This document shows, in pieces, positions 51,001-60,000 of a DNA stretch of 64,000 nucleotides. The DNA comes from Pecten maximus (lineage: Eukaryota): assembly GCF_902652985.1 (NCBI RefSeq), contig NC_047029.1, positions 13,082,001 through 13,146,000 on the forward strand. The letters are read 5' to 3'. The position numbers are program-made. Positions within the stretch are counted from its first letter, which is position 1; every line of letters starts with the position of its first letter.

Positions 51001-54000
51001 GTCCAGAGACTTTCGTCTCTTGTATTATTTAGTATATAAGTTTCCCCGTCCCGAGCCTCTCGTCTCTTGTACTGTTTTGTATATAAGTTTCCCCGCCCCG
51101 AGACTCTCATCTCTTGTATTATTTTGTGTATAAGTTTCCCCGTCCCGAGACTCTCATCTCTTGTATTATTTTGTATATAAGTTTCCCCGTCCCGAGCCTC
51201 TCGTCTCTTGTATTTTTTTGTGTTTAAGTTTCCCCGTCCCGAGCCTCTCGTCTCTTGTATCCTTTTGTGTATCAGTTTCCCCGTCCCGAGCCTCTCGTCT
51301 CTTGTATCCTTTTGTGTATTAGTTTCTCCGTCCCGCGCCTCTCGTCTCTTGTATGGTTTTGTGTATAATTAAGGTTTCCCCGTCCCGAGCCTCTTGTCTC
51401 TTGTATCATTTTGTGTATAAGTTTCCCCGTCCCGAGACTCTCGTCTCTTGTATTATTTTGTATATAAGTTTCCCGTCCAGAGACTTTCGTCTCTTGTATT
51501 ATTTTGTATATAAGTTTCCCCGCCTCGAGCCTCTCGTCTCTTGTATTGTTTTGTGTTTAAGTTTCCCCGTCCCGAGCCTCTCGTCTCTTGTACTGTTTTG
51601 TATATAAGTTTCCCCGTCCCGAGACTCTCGTCTCTTGTATTATTTTGTGTATAAGTTTCCCCGTCCCGAGCCTCTCGACTCTTGTATCCTTTTGTGTATA
51701 AGTTTCCCCGTCCCCAGCCTCCCGTCTCTTATATTGTTTTGTGTATAAGTTTCCCCGTCCCGCGCCTCTCGTCTCTTGTATTGTTTTGTGTATAATTAAG
51801 GTTTCCCAGTCCCGAGCCTCTCGTCTCTTGTATCATTTTGTGTATAAGTTACCCCGTCCCGAGACTCTCGTCTCTTGTATCATTTTGTGTATAAGTTTCC
51901 CTGTTCCGAGACTCTCGTCTGTGTATAAGTTTTCCTGTGCCGAGCCTCTCGTCTCTTGAATTATATTTGATGTTGAAGTTTTCGAACCTGTCCCGAGCCT
52001 TTTGTCTCATGTATTATTTTGTGTTAAAGTTTTCCTGTCCCGAGCCTCTCGTCTCTTGTATCGTTTTGTGTTTAAGTTTCCCCGTCCCGAGTCTCTCGTC
52101 TCTTGTACTGTTTTGTATATAAGTTTTCCCGTCCCGAGCATCTCGTCTCTTGTATCATTTTGTGTATAAGTTTCCCCGTTTCGAGCCTCTCGTCTCTTGT
52201 ATTGTTTTGTGTATAATTAAGGTTTCCCCGTCCCGAGCCTATCGTCTCTTGTATCATTTTGTGTATAAGTTTCCCCGTCCCGAGCCTCTCGTCTCTAAAA
52301 TTATTATGTGTATATGTTTCCCCGTCCCGAGCCTCTCGTCTCTTGCATCCTTTTGTGTTTAAGTTTCCCCGTCCCGAGCCTCTCGTCTCTTGTACTGTTT
52401 TGTATATAAGTTTCCCCGTCCCGAGACTCTCGTCTCTTGTATTATTTTGTATATAAATTTCTCCGTCCCCAGCCTCTCGTCTCTTGTATTATTTTGTGTA
52501 TAAGTTTTCCCGTCCCGAGCATCTCGTCTCTTGTATCATTTTGTGTATAAGTTTCCCCGTCCCGAGCCTCTCGTCTCTTGTATTGTTTTGTGTATAATTA
52601 AGGTTTCCCCGTCCCGAGCCTATCGTCTCTTGTATCATTTTGTGTATAAGTTTCCCCGTCCCGAGCCTCTCGTCTCTAAAATTATTGTGTATAAGTTTCC
52701 CCGTCCCGAGCCTCTCGTCTCTTGTATCCTTTTGTGTATAAGTTTCCCCGTCCCGAGCCTTTCGTCTCTTGTATTATTTTGTGTTGAAGTTTTCTTGTGC
52801 CGAGCCTCTCGTCTCTTGAATTATATTTTATGTTGAAGTTTTCGAACCTGTCCCGAACCTCTCGTCTCATGTATTATTTTGTGTTGAAGTTTCCCCGTCC
52901 CGAGCCTCTCGACTCGTGTTATTATTTTGTGTTTAAGTTTCTTGTCTCGAGCCTCTCGTCTCTTGTATTATTTTACTAACTTTATCCTCCTTACATTCAG
53001 TTCCCATTGTCTCTTCTAATTTTAGAATCCCGTTCACATATTCTTTCGTAATATCTTGACATCCTTCTTCAATTTTGATATTGGTAACGACATTTTTTGG
53101 GGCGATTTCTTTGCATGCAACGTAGAACCACATAAAGTTTGACGTGCAACGGTGAGTGCGACATCGTTCACACTTCAACATCCTGACGTCCGGTTCAAAG
53201 AATTCTTTGTTGCAGTCCACAAGTTGCCAACTATAAATCCTCATATGTTAATTAATTCCAATGGGATTGGCTGATCATTTTCGCACATTGGGGTTATTTT
53301 GTTAAACGTGTATATCTAAATGGCAATTAACAAATCAAAAACTATAGAAGGCTGACGTTCTACCAATAGGAATTGATAATAACCAATATTCGCTGGTAAT
53401 TCGCTGGTAGAAGGGCCTCGAAAGTAAGTTTTCCATCTTGTATAGAGGCATCAATTGTTTTTTCTAAATATCATGTTGGTGTTGATTGGGAACTTTTTCC
53501 CCCCTACACCGACTTTGAGTCCCGGTTGCGCGCGCACGGTTTACTAAATGTTATTTACATTTAAAAGATCAATAATTTGACATTATTAATAGGTACATTA
53601 TGTATATATACATAGAGGGTGTATCATAGTGTAAGTGATATACCTACACATTAGCGTTTGTTGACTTGTGAATGTCATTTTGATAGTCGATTTCTGATTA
53701 TTTGTCTAGTGGCGGAGCAATCCCCACACAACTTGGACAAGGAATCAATAATTAGTTTATTTACACAACAATTTTGTTTAAAAACACTGTACTTGTGCTT
53801 GTACTATAGGCGGCACTTGGCTACTAGATCTATAGAATGTTCTTAGGGTAACCAAGATGCCCAGTACAGACAGCCATAAATGGGATACTGGGATTACACT
53901 ACTGTTTCCATTTAGGAGAACTTATCATTGCTATTCTTCCAATGACTATTTAGCTTGGTCTTGAAGCTATTGACAGATCTTGCGGTCACCACATCATCTG

Positions 54001-57000: not shown

Positions 57001-60000
57001 ATGTTGTCATTTGTTTGCTGTGGTATTTATCCTTAGTGCCTTGTCCTGCGGGTGTAGCATTTGATGGCTTGACAGGGGGACCTGTGGCGGGGCGATCCCC
57101 AAACAGCAGGTCGCTCCTACGGGCTACAGGTTGGGGTGCTCTCCTGGCTTTGGTTATTAGTCGCATTGGAGGTTCTTCTGGTTTTTCTTGGCGAGTGATA
57201 GTCTGTCTCTCCTTTGTTTTGGCTACATATTTAGTCTTCCTCTCCTCTCTCTGTAGTTTTGTAAGATCTTTTGTCAAAATTACTTTCTAGAGTCGGTCAG
57301 GCACCTTCTCCTTAATGTATCGAGCATTCTCCAAGAGCTGCTTACGATCTTGTTTGTTCTTCAGTACGAACACTAGGGGTCTAATGGAGACTTTGTTATA
57401 TCTCCCAATCCTATAACTTGCCGCAGTTTCAGGGATGCTGTCACATAAGGCCTTACAGAGGTCAGAGAATGCACTCGTATCATTCGCCTTTATTTCTTTA
57501 CTGCCTGGTGTACTGCTCTCCGGAACGTGGAATAGTATGATATTTAGTTCTTTCAATTTCCGGTCTTGTAGCTCCTTGGTTCGTTCATCTACAAGGTCAA
57601 AGATGTTGCTTTTAAGGTCTTGGACAATCTCCTCCTTTGTATGCTTCATTTTGTTCTTGATAGTGTCCTTAGCAGATGTTTCTACTTGTTGTAGTCTCCG
57701 TTCAATATCGTCCAGCCTTTCCTCATTTTTTTCGCACAAGCTCTTGAGGGAGTTATTTATATGGTCCAGCGTAGGTTTGGTCCTTATGCAGACATGGCAC
57801 GTCCAAGTCATATTCTCTAGCTCTCCCTTGGTTATACATTGGTAGGCTGCATCAGATATCTTAGTGCACTTTTGACAGAAGTATAGCCCACAATTGTCAC
57901 ACATAATATGACGCGTGTCAGCTCCTAACTAATTTTGGCATCTACCACACATATGGAGAGAGTCTTCCGGTTTATAACGTTTACGGTGATCTTCCATGTT
58001 ATGGATTCAGTTGGTATATAAACGTATTTATATATATATTAAACGACGTATAAGTCTAGACAGTGGCAGGGCAATCCCCAAACATCTATCGACTACTAAT
58101 CACTGTCCTTCTTTGTCCATCTTTTAACTCTAGACGCAGGGTATTGATTTTACAATGTAGTACTTGTGTAGCCTTGATAGTGGCGGAGCAATCCCCACAC
58201 AACTATCAGTGCTGACATAAATAGTTAATGTTTTATAATGTACACTAATCGATTTGGACAGTATTTCCTCTGTTATGAGTCCGCTGAGAGATATTCTGTT
58301 ATTCTCCTCATCCAGTATTTTGCCAGAAGGTTTGTTGGGTGAACACCATCAGTTAGAAGCGAAAATGATATTTTTCTGTAGTGTATGCTTTGTTGCTCTT
58401 CCTAGATTTCACCATATCGAGTGATAGCTTTGGTGAGAAGGAGTTCATTTCCTTGTTTATTGTATGTATACCTCGGTTAAGGACTTCGACATTCTCTCTT
58501 AATATCTTGTCAGCTTCAGCAAAAATACCAGGATTTGGATGTCCTTTGTTAGCGTTCCAAATTCGGATACTGTAATACGGGCACTCAAGTACTGTTATAG
58601 TAAAATTTAGAGTCCTTGTAGCGACGAGCGAGGGATACAAGCCTTCCGAATTGCTCTATGACATCTCCCACAGCACCGTCATTAAGACTGATGAATTTGT
58701 CAGATTTTTTGGTAAGGTCGCATGTCCCCGTCCACACTAAGATTGTGAGGGTGGTGTATAAGCGTATCAGCGACTCGGCGTTTTCTGTTAGGTAGTTGAT
58801 GGTGGTCCTGGTATTCCTACCGGGTCTACAGTTCCACACAAACCCTTTCTCTACTGGTCCTTCAGCAACATTCCGTAGACGAAGACCTTTACTGTCAGAA
58901 AGAAACAGCACTTGTCTGCGGGATTCACCACTATGGGCCGGGGAGGGCCGAGCTTTATCCAAATATTTTTGAAGCTTCGCAGCACTCATGAATAATAATG
59001 ATATATGTCAAGATGTTGTTCATATATTTACATTGTGTAGCAGACCATTGTGTGAATAAAGAGAGTTATAAAGTATTATAAAAGGTTTCTACTTACAGTA
59101 ATCTTGCCCTCAACAATATAAATTACTCCATATGCTATAAAAATCAGTTTTTAAAATCTTATATGGATCCGGAGTGTTTTGGATTATATGTATGTGATCT
59201 TATTAAGTGAACAGCAAACGCCTGTGCATAATCAAACTAAAAAAAAGTGAATACTATTCTTAAGGATTTCATTTACAATCAGGACTCTTAAAAAGTGTAT
59301 TTCACTTTGAAAAGTAAATAACTATTGCAAAAATATGCTCTATTATCCTATTATATTTCCAGAATCGCCAAAAAAATATTTACGTGCAATTTGACCTTAA
59401 TTGTGAGAACCATATCTTATTTTTCGTTTGCCCATGTGTTTTTCTCTCCTATTTATGAGGAAAATATCCCTTCTGATATATTTTACACTTGTATTATTGG
59501 TGTAGTGTTCCCTACACTCATTTTGTGAACAGGTGGATTATGCCCCCTGGAACTACAGGTTACCCAGCATGCACTTCCAGCGTACATTGCCGCCATTCCT
59601 GCTTGTTAGTTGCACGTTGTTGTGGTAATTGTACTGATTTTAGCCATACAAAACATCGACTATGAGTGAAAACGGAGAAGTAAGTATAACGCAACCAACT
59701 CCAAACAAAAAATGTGGTATTTAACTAAATATTTTGTTGAAAATTGTTGAGGTCATTTTCTTTTCCGAAGTAACAAAGTCGAATCACAAACGTTTTTGTT
59801 GAAATTACTGTAGCCGGTAATGTCATTCTGCTGAAAGATTTACAGCTATTGGCAGGCAGCTCAACATTAACAACAATATGTTTCTAGTTTAAGTGTTTCA
59901 CAGCAAGCTATATCCTACCTTAACAATATCATTGGACAGTTGATCATGAGTTGTAGATGTTGTGTCGGACAGATTGGGCACATGTTAATTTTTATCCTGC

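Follow-up and report, generated by a model that had tools for sequence, protein, structure and literature searches.

LINEs of the CR1/L2 group with an esterase-type ORF1 protein (ORF1p) were reportedly described by Kapitonov and Jurka in 2003. According to the cited sections of Schneider et al. (2013, PMC3905857), none of the esterase-containing ORF1p in Repbase carries an RRM or other structural RNA-binding domain, and esterase ORF1s are placed in only two vertebrate subgroups in the cited sections of Metcalfe and Casane (2014, PMC4120745). Outside these LINEs, the cited parts of the respective papers report a stand-alone GDSL/SGNH ORF3 in bdelloid Vesta LTR elements and in Athena elements (Rodriguez et al. 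2017, PMC5408684) and an extra SGNH ORF in Ngaro-like elements (PMC9210276). A 2A sequence followed by a PHD finger ahead of the apurinic-type endonuclease (APE) is reported, in the cited part of Odon et al. (2013, PMC3708506), for CR1 and Crack elements of amphioxus and sea urchin.

In the window (the whole 64-kb stretch of DNA analysed here), three co-oriented coding regions, namely an esterase-like ORF0, ORF1 and ORF2, were located on the minus strand at 53912-58989, in agreement with the original prediction of a co-oriented esterase, PHD/coiled-coil ORF1 and APE-reverse transcriptase (RT) ORF2 (Table 1). Taking identity and architecture together, the region very likely represents a LINE of the CR1 group, inactivated and apparently of full length, with three genes on one strand, the CR1 assignment being based on domain content and on short-tandem-repeat 3' tails rather than on an RT phylogeny. 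The 64-kb window contains no further copy of the element, whole or partial.

Table 1. Positions of the features of the element in the window
Feature	Position	Strand	Details
ORF0, SGNH-fold esterase-like gene (predicted fold)	58273..58989	-	tblastn with P0121, P0122, P0125 and P0130, three frame pieces; ATG at 58989, TAA stop 58275-58273
ORF0 pieces by tblastn	58989-58618; 58607-58362; 58377-58300	-	frames -2, -3 and -2, respectively
ORF0 frameshift sites (approximate positions)	58608-58602; 58375-58371	-	AAATTTT run; A5 run
Spacer, esterase gene to ORF1	57998..58272	-	275 nt, 37% G+C, 3 ATGs
ORF1: PHD-like zinc finger, coiled coil, RRM-like domain, basic disordered tail	56804..57997	-	398 codons read through; ATG at 57997; TGA 56806-56804, then directly TAG 56803-56801
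In-frame TAG stops within ORF1	57931-57929; 57289-57287	-	
ORF2: apurinic-type endonuclease and reverse transcriptase	53912..56800	-	Pfam, relatives; TAA stop 53914-53912
Occurrences of GGGGATTGCYCYGCCAC	58196-58180; 58079-58063; 57100-57084; 53725-53709	-	first two in spacer, third in ORF1 tail, fourth past ORF2 stop
Hairpin copy a, spacer	58170..58210	-	MFE -16 kcal/mol, z -2.87; 38.8 bits, training sequence of the model; 27-nt core 58178-58204 identical to copy at 53707-53733
Hairpin copy b, spacer	58053..58093	-	conserved GCCAC ends 66 nt before ORF1 ATG
Hairpin copy c, inside ORF1 C-terminal coding region	57074..57114	-	z -2.38; present in the window element only
Hairpin copy d, 187 nt downstream of ORF2 stop	53699..53739	-	in 3' UTR or flanking DNA

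Seven loci bearing members of the esterase family were found, comprising four LINEs (L001-L004) and three LTR retrotransposons (L005-L007). Each of the four LINEs, which lie on other contigs, has an esterase-like ORF that is intact (236-244 aa counted from its ATG), a spacer (260-339 nt), a PHD/coiled-coil/RRM ORF1 (308-389 aa) and an APE-RT ORF2 in this order, and their ORF2s are 42-50% identical to that of the window. The earlier proposal of a tricistronic element with two separate accessory genes is thus supported, and the layout is conserved across five divergent elements. Pairwise identities were 33-49% for the esterase, 25-50% for ORF1 and 42-67% for ORF2, and the divergence was congruent in all three genes, with L001 and L003 being the closest pair and L002 the most distant element each time. 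The five LINE-linked esterases, including that of the window, fell within one clade of 13 rows with an SH-aLRT of 97 in a tree built by a quick method. Since L001-L004 all come from one assembly, labelled as a bacterial MAG, and therefore from one host, they represent four families and not four species. The 3' tails of CR1-type short tandem repeats were found in L001, L003 and L004, within approximately 40 nt of the ORF2 stop. The lineage carrying an extra, free-standing esterase-like gene before the usual two genes is old and CR1-like. In the searched literature, outside which the Repbase and Dfam catalogues lay, no description of a three-gene arrangement with a free-standing esterase was found.

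The ORF1 of the window was 34% identical to the intact ORF1 of L004 over 275 aa (E 1.5e-54), and its profile matched PHD fingers, including MLL1 PHD3 (1.2e-5). The fold was assigned on the intact relative L004, whose predicted ORF1 structure shows a long helix with a beta-alpha-beta-beta-alpha-beta unit behind it and matched best with the human LINE-1 ORF1p trimer (3.4e-5), RRMs coming next. With its PHD-like zinc finger, coiled coil and RRM, the ORF1 product thus resembles an RNA-packaging protein of the L1-ORF1p type. All 13 ORF1 relatives found were 323-391 aa in length, so none of them is fused to an esterase. ORF2 was matched by the Pfam models RVT_1 (1.2e-36), Exo_endo_phos_2 (4.5e-14) and Exo_endo_phos (1.1e-05), and was 49% identical over 98% to its best relatives and 49.5% identical to the ORF2 of L004 (948 aa). 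It follows ORF1 after TGA and TAG in unchanged frame, with no spacer, and its first ATG (56551) falls within the endonuclease, no ATG being present ahead of this domain.

The window copy itself is dead and decayed, with two frameshifts in ORF0 and two in-frame TAG stops in ORF1, and because it is broken, it is silent about expression. The predicted esterase ORF with SDS, GTCD and DGVHP was borne out as far as the motifs are concerned, all three being present, but it is not one open frame: in tblastn, intact relatives of about 240 aa were matched along their own full length (residues 1-230 of P0121) in three pieces, and the longest uninterrupted stretch, which starts at the ATG, has 134 aa. The two shifts might be assembly errors, in which case ORF0 would be intact in the organism and the copy less decayed than it appears; each falls within a homopolymer run (AAATTTT, AAAAA), the initial frame is regained at the second shift, and ORF2 is open from stop to stop across 962 codons. 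We consider this somewhat unlikely, since the two TAG stops in ORF1 are of the substitution type, at positions where intact relatives carry ordinary residues, and they render the element defective whether or not the ORF0 shifts are real.

Two copies of the hairpin lie in the spacer between ORF0 and ORF1, together with an A/T-rich, TATA-like segment ahead of the ORF1 ATG. Four occurrences of the motif GGGGATTGCYCYGCCAC were counted on the minus strand, where 0.02 would be expected. Short spacers sharing a repeated motif had been predicted; the repetition was found, with two copies in the esterase-ORF1 spacer, but this spacer is the only real one. All five LINEs carry one to three hairpin copies per spacer, at a distance of 57-66 nt between hairpin end and ORF1 ATG, and the hairpin of L002, the sole copy outside model building, was recovered at E 0.012. 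The hairpin model search found none in the 3' parts of L001, L003 and L004. In the hairpin alignment, which comprises no more than 12 related copies, taken from 4 elements, 97.1% of cells pair, compared with 87% in shuffles (0/500 reaching 97.1%) and 45-71% in slid controls, and nine cells show compensatory changes, compared with 2.8 expected (0/500 shuffles). The outer stems are formed from differing flanking sequences.

The mechanism of expression is much less certain than the identity and the three-gene architecture. One full-length RNA would carry all three genes and ORF0 would be translated first, ORF1 would be reached through internal initiation or reinitiation, and ORF2 would be made without its own ATG, by reinitiation, read-through or frameshift. 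It is tentatively proposed that the conserved hairpin or hairpins upstream of the ORF1 ATG help internal initiation or reinitiation at ORF1. The main alternative to this role is an internal promoter in the spacer, so that ORF1-ORF2 would have their own RNA, ORF0 would be transcribed from a 5' promoter, and the hairpin motif would be a DNA binding site. In favour of this, the window, L003 and L004 have TATA-like sequences some 25-40 nt ahead of the ORF1 start codon, and the motif is repeated one to three times, as is often the case with enhancer sites; the A/T-rich sequence between hairpin and ATG is as compatible with a promoter acting at the DNA level as with an element acting in RNA. The number of ATGs per spacer (0-6) disfavours simple scanning from ORF0, although the route to ORF1 is not thereby shown. 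Nevertheless, two transcription units appear unlikely: copies derived from RNA begun in the spacer would lack both ORF0 and the promoter, but ORF0 persists across deeply diverged elements, and the compensatory changes, together with outer stems that are specific to their flanks, favour a strand that folds over a duplex site. Furthermore, the relative P0158, in which the esterase is followed by a 2A-like SGIETNPGP and then a PHD finger (Pfam 8.9e-7), shows that an esterase and a PHD protein can viably be translated together from a single RNA.

The esterase-like family comprised 206 representatives clustered at 50% identity (E≤1e-3). Its members are mostly stand-alone proteins of about 240 aa (among the 150 representatives listed, 77 have 220-265 aa and 7 exceed 265 aa), and most align their own residue 1 to the Met of the window protein. 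None of the Pfam GDSL models exceeded the threshold on any family member, the best E value being 0.062 (one of 14 proteins), and the family profile retrieved no SGNH entry at E≤10 from the PDB sequences, which should include the ZfL2-1 esterase 4c1b according to the cited part of Schneider et al. (2013, PMC3905857). An AlphaFold2 model was obtained for P0121, a relative 39% identical to the window protein, from 77 sequences (pLDDT 97.0, pTM 0.92). Foldseek of this model against the PDB gave 71 matches at E≤1e-3, and the top matches listed were SGNH/GDSL esterases or acyltransferases (TM 0.5-0.7) except for three designed scaffolds (9hi4-9hi6). The family is thus predicted, from the model of P0121 and not from the window's own sequence, to have an SGNH hydrolase fold. 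The Cys in place of the block III Asn of SGNH enzymes, originally noted for the window copy, is indeed present there but is a family trait rather than a peculiarity of this copy (C90 in 75/77 members). As the missing Asn belongs to the oxyanion hole, hydrolytic activity is not assured, and ORF0 might encode a non-catalytic SGNH-like module that binds RNA or lipid, comparable to the SGNH-like domain of Oskar, with which the failure of the Pfam GDSL models would also be in line. This is distinctly unlikely in view of the invariant nucleophile Ser (S33, 77/77), the block II Gly (G57, 72/77) and the Asp and His (D214 and H217, 69/77 each), a pattern expected of an active site under selection. By analogy with the proposal for the ZfL2-1 esterase, the ORF0 esterase may act on lipids or membranes and thereby aid particle assembly or trafficking, RNA binding being left to the separate ORF1p.

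The original prediction had allowed for esterase copies unlinked to ORF1 and ORF2. Linkage was found at four of the seven loci, and the remaining three are Ty3/gypsy-type LTR retrotransposons (L005-L007) in which the esterase ORF lies 5' of gag, followed by PR-RT-RH-IN; in L006 it is enclosed by terminal direct repeats. The occurrence on LTR retrotransposons as well points to a shared module rather than to chance nesting. Chance placement of an unrelated esterase element or a host gene immediately 5' of a standard CR1-like LINE with two ORFs is highly improbable, even though the family is not exclusive to LINEs, the esterase of the representative P0236 is fused to gag-PR-RT and the window holds a single copy, because all four related LINE loci repeat the same layout with similar spacing and intact ORFs, with congruent divergence of the three genes, one supported clade of LINE-linked esterases and a hairpin conserved in every spacer.

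Compared with known systems, the element shares with the esterase-type (type IV) ORF1p LINEs of CR1/L2, such as zebrafish ZfL2-1, an SGNH-fold esterase ahead of APE-RT and the conserved Ser, Gly, Asp and His positions, and a lipid- or membrane-binding role is plausible, as judged from the cited part of PMC3905857. In the ZfL2-1 type, however, the esterase is placed there at the C-terminal end of ORF1p behind a coiled coil, whereas here it is a separate first gene without a coiled coil, has Cys instead of Asn in block III and is accompanied in the same element by a PHD/coiled-coil/RRM ORF1p. CR1 subgroup 4 with type IIIB ORF1 is similar in its N-terminal PHD-like finger and RRM in ORF1 and its APE-RT ORF2, but no upstream esterase gene is described for it in the cited sections of Metcalfe and Casane (2014, PMC4120745). 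The 2A-bearing LINEs resemble P0158 in having a D(V/I)ExNPGP-type motif, which in P0158 stands between esterase and PHD finger; in those LINEs, what precedes the 2A is not an esterase but a short N-terminal leader, some 40-80 aa long, according to the cited part of PMC3708506. A 2A was looked for in the window element and L001-L004, and none was found, a non-coding spacer being present instead. Finally, with the Vesta, Athena and Ngaro-like elements, as described in the cited parts of PMC5408684 and PMC9210276, the element has in common a free-standing SGNH-type accessory module, one shared between unrelated retroelement classes. There, the module comes after pol or YR and retains its S-G-N-H residues, whereas the gene described here stands first in order, ahead of ORF1 or gag, carries the block III Cys and is found on LINEs and on Ty3/gypsy-type elements.

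The element was read on the minus strand of a window without any N, its predicted coordinates running from the esterase ATG to the ORF2 stop. The three co-oriented coding regions named in the original prediction were all present, namely an esterase-like SGNH-fold gene (ORF0), ORF1, and the endonuclease and reverse transcriptase gene (ORF2), but the copy is broken by two frameshifts and two ORF1 stops. Short spacers with a shared motif had also been described; the spacer between ORF0 and ORF1 indeed carries two copies, but there is none between ORF1 and ORF2. Only TGA TAG parts these two ORFs in one frame, and TAG is also the codon at each internal ORF1 stop. 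Within the 64-kb window, sequence self-comparison, tblastn, and profile search revealed no further copy of any element part.

Features of the window and of the Ty3/gypsy-type loci L005-L007
Feature	Position	Strand	Remarks
Element	53912-58989	minus	ORF2 stop to esterase ATG
Esterase-like gene (ORF0)	ATG 58989, TAA 58275-58273	minus	motifs LSDSKG, RPGRN, GTCD, DGVHP
ORF0 frame pieces	58989-58618; 58607-58362; 58377-58300	minus	frames -2, -3, -2
ORF0 frameshifts	58608-58602; 58375-58371	minus	AAATTTT run; A5 run
Spacer ORF0-ORF1	275 nt	minus	
ORF1	ATG 57997, TGA 56806-56804	minus	then TAG directly
ORF1 in-frame TAG stops	57931-57929; 57289-57287	minus	
ORF2	56800-53912	minus	stop TAA, same frame as ORF1; Pfam
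11-nt repeat	53390-53412	minus	two units
47-bp satellite	50842-52974		45 copies, 83% matches
Paralogous large exons	6628-7452, 12702-13106, 16634-17362, 38547-39653, 42883-44058, 48588-49694	plus	tandem array
Three adjacent ORFs	25818-27694	minus	
Esterase-like ORF, L005	217-933		
Esterase-like ORF, L006	1702-2472		
Esterase-like ORF, L007	1-636		
Direct repeats, L006	1-268 and 8493-8759		96-100% identical
36-nt tandem repeat, L005	6464-6634		~4 units

The window esterase was recovered by tblastn as three frame pieces that jointly span intact relatives. The second frameshift returns to the first frame, and both may be true mutations or assembly errors. The two in-frame ORF1 stops are aligned with ordinary residues of intact relatives (Lys or Arg at the second), which marks them as nonsense substitutions. 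In ORF2, 962 codons are open, and relatives align with 98% of its length; the first ATG, at 56551, falls within the endonuclease, ORF2 of the related LINE locus L004 likewise has no ATG there, and several other relatives have Met just before the endonuclease. The window copy is best regarded as inactivated. Its four disruptions are confined to ORF0 and ORF1 (together 1.9 kb), and ORF2 has none over 2.9 kb, a split with a chance of ~(1.9/4.8)^4 = 0.025 at even odds per base. Nucleotide comparison with the related LINE loci L001-L004 gave likeness in the coding parts and none outside, so that the element ends cannot be set by comparison.

Directly downstream of the element (minus strand) lies the 47-bp satellite, which yields spurious repetitive ORFs at 52072-52870. 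The array of paralogous large exons encodes closely similar multi-pass membrane proteins, two of which were tested and matched Pfam MFS_1 (1.2e-8 and 2.1e-9); it is a locally duplicated transporter gene family. The three adjacent ORFs look like the remains of a DNA transposon (one with a sub-threshold DDE_Tnp_4 match, E 0.0012, and two without a Pfam match).

When the genome collection was scanned with an alignment of seven esterases, seven loci were returned. Four of these (L001-L004) are contigs of 5.6-6.2 kb from a single assembly titled as a bacterial MAG, and in each an intact esterase-like ORF (236-244 aa counted from the ATG) is separated by a 260-339 nt spacer from ORF1 (308-389 aa), after which comes an ORF2 with APE and RT. 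Among the five elements (window and L001-L004), identities were 33-49% in the esterase, 25-50% in ORF1, and 42-67% in ORF2. The identity ranking was equal in all three genes, with L001 and L003 as the closest pair and L002 as the most distant; L004 is nearest to the window in ORF1 (34%) and ORF2 (49.5%). L001-L004 are four different families. A quick maximum-likelihood esterase tree was built from 87 rows (77 full-length representatives, the seven loci, the window, and the esterase parts of the fused proteins P0158 and P0236), the window row being read across its breaks, each marked by X, and 71 other listed representatives being omitted for length; the five LINE-linked esterases were held in one 13-row clade (SH-aLRT 97). 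In L001-L006 the esterase ORFs begin at their own Met, 2-24 codons past an upstream stop, that of L007 being cut at the locus start, and the 13 ORF1 relatives found are all 323-391 aa long, so none of them carries an esterase. Chance nesting of an esterase beside a two-ORF LINE is therefore excluded for practical purposes by the intact layout in four LINE loci of different families, the common divergence ranking, and the single clade. The prediction of one element with two separate accessory genes is thus supported, with esterase, ORF1, and ORF2 in the same order in four of the seven loci, and the linkage recurs in independent elements on other contigs.

Complete LINEs and LTR retrotransposons of eukaryote type are encoded by the L001-L007 contigs, which are filed as MAGs of bacterial symbionts and are most likely host DNA wrongly binned. 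Named ORF2 relatives are labelled only 'reverse transcriptase' or 'hypothetical protein', and several of the top ones are attributed by name to MAGs of Sedimenticola or Thiodiazotropha.

An exhaustive phmmer search of 1.84 billion cluster representatives, with the first esterase piece (140 aa) as the query, gave 206 relatives with E<=1e-3, of which 17 reach E<=1e-10. Among the best 150 of the 206, 77 are 220-265 aa long, 7 exceed 265 aa, and the remainder are shorter and appear to be fragments; in most of these 150 the window Met was aligned with the relative's own first residue. The window esterase belongs to a large family of stand-alone proteins. With the same 140-aa piece, no match was obtained by word-indexed protein search (subjects of 77-245 aa) or by phmmer against PDB sequences (E<=10). 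The Pfam GDSL models (Lipase_GDSL, Lipase_GDSL_2) did not match the three window pieces, and a sub-threshold Lipase_GDSL match (E 0.062) was seen in one of 14 family proteins. The profile of the 77-sequence esterase alignment gave only chance-level matches to PDB sequences, with no SGNH entry at E<=10. Pfam-based annotation of transposable elements will overlook this gene.

Among the best 150 representatives, block I reads SDS in 88 and TDS in 20, block III reads GTCD in 95, GTND in 2, and GSCD in 1 (motif not found in 52), and block V reads DG[IVL]HP in 65. In the alignment of the 77 full-length members, Ser33 (77/77), Gly57 (72/77), Asp214 (69/77), and His217 (69/77) are conserved, and the block III column holds Cys90 in 75 and Asn in one. 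The window sequence itself has the block I Ser, the block II Gly, and the Asp-x-x-His of block V, and has GTCD where SGNH proteins have the block III Asn. The Cys noted in the original prediction was thus confirmed, and since it occurs in 75 of 77 members it is a family signature.

The fold was modelled with AlphaFold2 on P0121, a relative 39% identical to the window's first esterase piece, instead of the broken window sequence (77-sequence alignment; pLDDT 97.0, pTM 0.92). Foldseek matched this model to 71 PDB chains at E<=1e-3. The matches listed had TM scores of 0.5-0.7 at 10-17% identity, and were GDSL/SGNH esterases, sialate O-acetylesterases, PatB-type O-acetyltransferases, and PAF acetylhydrolase, except for three designed scaffolds (9hi4-9hi6). 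The best 50 of the 71 did not include 4c1b, given in the accessible text of Schneider et al. (2013, PMC3905857) as the deposited ZfL2-1 esterase. The model has the three-layer alpha/beta/alpha SGNH fold, and Ser, Gly, Cys, and Asp-x-x-His are placed in its strand order like blocks I, II, III, and V. A language-model look-alike search ranked unnamed mollusc and annelid clusters best (0.98-0.95), followed by GDSL-annotated clusters (0.94, 0.93), a likeness that is a lead only. On the predicted structure we conclude that the esterase-like protein has an SGNH fold in which four of five defining positions are kept and the oxyanion-hole Asn is replaced. The conserved triad argues for the ORF0 protein as a predicted enzyme, and the Cys that the family carries in place of the oxyanion-hole Asn makes a variant SGNH active site that can be put to the test.

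In the alignment of the five ORF1s, a Cys-rich finger is followed by a stretch rich in heptads, then by a globular part that is conserved, and last by a basic tail. The finger follows a C4HC3 (PHD-type) pattern in L002, and the other four have Cys for His (C4C4). An ORF1 profile of 17 sequences matched MLL1 PHD3 (1.2e-5) and Pygopus PHD (0.0075) in the PDB, and Pfam PHD gave E 0.11 on the window ORF1 piece. The AlphaFold2 model of L004 ORF1 (pLDDT above 90 for residues 30-280) consists of the finger, a 70-residue helix, and a beta-alpha-beta-beta-alpha-beta unit; its best PDB matches were the human LINE-1 ORF1p trimer (3.4e-5) and the LINE-1 ORF1p RRM (TM 0.70 on target), followed by many further RRMs. 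Window ORF1 was aligned to its relatives across finger, coil, and RRM, and thus has the N-terminal PHD-like finger followed by an RRM that defines type III ORF1. Pfam found RVT_1 (1.2e-36), Exo_endo_phos_2 (4.5e-14), and Exo_endo_phos (1.1e-5) in window ORF2, with no RNase H match listed; the N-terminal APE-type endonuclease and RT are as in CR1-group LINEs. Both the PHD/coiled-coil ORF1, by profile and model, and the APE-RT ORF2, by these Pfam matches, had been correctly predicted, and the RRM is to be added.

In the Ty3/gypsy-type loci, the esterase-like ORF lies 5' of gag and is followed by PR-RT-RH-IN in Ty3/gypsy order. The terminal direct repeats of L006 flank the esterase ORF together with gag-pol, and in P0236 (855 aa) an N-terminal portion of the esterase runs on into gag-PR-RT. 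The 36-nt tandem repeat of L005 is found towards the 3' end of pol. LTR-linked esterases fall outside the LINE clade, scattered in separate parts of the tree, and at least two changes of carrier type are required by this tree. In P0158 (340 aa) an esterase is followed by SGIETNPGP and a PHD finger (Pfam 8.9e-7), residues 225-295 spanning the 2A-like join; it is the same protein pair, with a 2A-like skipping signal replacing the spacer. In the window element and L001-L004, the search for a 2A-like motif was negative.

The repeated motif forms a hairpin. GGGGATTGCYCYGCCAC occurs four times on the minus strand of the window against 0.02 expected, and the copies lie two in the spacer (a, b), one in the ORF1 tail (c), and one 187 nt past the ORF2 stop (d). 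Copy d has 27 bases identical to copy a, beyond which their flanks have no convincing likeness. Self-comparison revealed related spacer repeats in L001 (three), L003 (two), and L004 (three). A covariance model built from 12 copies (window, L001, L003, L004) added one copy of weaker score in the spacer of L002 (E 0.012) and a doubtful match within L005 (E 0.031), and found none in the 3' parts of L001-L004. RNAalifold gave a 6-bp stem with compensatory changes in three pairs. In these 12 related copies, 97.1% of stem cells pair (87% in shuffles) and nine cells are changed on both sides (2.8 expected), neither value being reached in any of 500 shuffles; slid controls pair at 45-71%. These statistics are supportive, not proof. 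The outer stem of each copy is formed from its own differing flanks (z -0.9 to -4.7 in ten copies folded), and the distance from GCCAC of the last hairpin to the ORF1 ATG is 57-66 nt in all five elements. Rfam had no match on 52900-59600 at E<=1.

Beyond ORF2, short tandem repeats follow the stop in L004 (ACGGTAAGAA, 2.3 units), L003 (ACAGGTA, two units), and L001 (AAGGTA type, three units), these ends lying within ~40 nt of the stop; no clear tandem-repeat tail was found after 53912 in the window. The 11-nt unit TACCAGCGAAT stands twice in tandem ~500 nt past the window ORF2 stop. If this is a CR1-type tail, the 3' UTR is ~510 nt and includes copy d. The ORF at 52933-53247 was considered as a second PHD-type ORF1 start after copy d, and was rejected (ORF1-profile hmmsearch, E 7.7).

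From this anatomy, the folds, and their conservation, we infer a mechanism in which a single full-length RNA would bear ORF0, ORF1, and ORF2, with ORF0 as the 5' gene being translated by ordinary scanning. Since ORF1 is preceded by a gene of 240 codons and by a spacer holding 0-6 ATGs, it must be reached by internal entry or through a special signal for reinitiation, for which the fixed-distance hairpin would be the candidate. P0158 shows an alternative route to both proteins from one RNA, a 2A join. The main rival is an internal promoter in the spacer that drives ORF1 and ORF2; an A/T-rich, TATA-like stretch lies between the last hairpin and the ORF1 ATG. On the reading of one polycistronic RNA, the conserved hairpin is a candidate for the element through which an internal gene is translated in eukaryotes. 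ORF2 has no ATG of its own in the window and L004, and overlaps ORF1 in other frames in L001-L004, which points to reinitiation, frameshifting, or read-through as the way by which ORF2 might be made. By analogy with the ZfL2-1 esterase, the ORF0 protein is expected to have a lipid- or membrane-directed role, RNA binding being left to the RRM-type ORF1p.

Tentatively, and with rather less than even confidence, the unnamed SGNH-fold S-G-C-(D)H family may be a portable first gene of marine-invertebrate retroelements, long kept in a CR1-group LINE beside an RRM-type ORF1p, exchanged with Ty3/gypsy-type elements, and followed by an ORF1 expressed via a dedicated hairpin or, in some relatives, a 2A peptide. 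If so, esterase and RRM functions are complementary, not redundant, and their coexistence is contrary to the published finding that the two never combine in ORF1 proteins of LINEs; that a lineage has kept them as separate genes over deep divergence suggests different jobs. Separate genes also offer a natural system in which either protein is removable alone, and the element bears on two open questions on esterase-carrying LINEs, namely how their RNA is packaged and what purpose the esterase has. The same 5' gene in LINEs and LTR elements extends the idea of sharing between element classes from bdelloid rotifers to other invertebrates.

LINEs with an esterase-type ORF1 were reportedly treated by Kapitonov and Jurka in 2003, among other sources. 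According to the accessible text of Schneider et al. (2013, PMC3905857), the ZfL2-1 esterase hydrolyses esters and binds acidic phospholipids, not RNA, and none of the esterase-containing ORF1p in Repbase has an RRM, the esterase type being without an RNA-binding domain; the same text asked whether the two domains are redundant or mutually exclusive. Unlike these type IV ORF1p, the present lineage combines both at the level of the element. The type IV esterase is a domain after a coiled coil, whereas here it is a separate gene ending ~240 aa after its own Met, and in the P0121 model nothing more than a short helix at the N terminus (residues 3-17) stands in place of that coiled coil. ORF1 follows the type III (PHD and RRM) pattern of Metcalfe and Casane (2014, PMC4120745), whose accessible sections place esterase ORF1s in two vertebrate subgroups only among 448 Repbase elements. 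A 2026 survey of vertebrate CR1-group elements, in its accessible portion, has the esterase type as the only identifiable ORF1 type in CR1 and L2, and one- and two-ORF layouts only. Free-standing GDSL/SGNH genes are described downstream of pol in bdelloid LTR and Athena elements (PMC5408684) and after the recombinase in Ngaro-like elements (PMC9210276), so far as the available parts of these papers extend; in contrast, the gene is the first one here. A 2A followed by a PHD finger ahead of APE is known in LINEs, and in the portion at hand of that report (PMC3708506) it does not stand behind an esterase. Full-text searches of the main texts of openly accessible papers found no description of a LINE in which a free-standing esterase gene precedes a PHD-type ORF1. 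Next to these systems, our results support a three-gene CR1-group LINE lineage with a divergent, Cys-bearing SGNH-fold first gene common with LTR elements and a conserved hairpin before ORF1.
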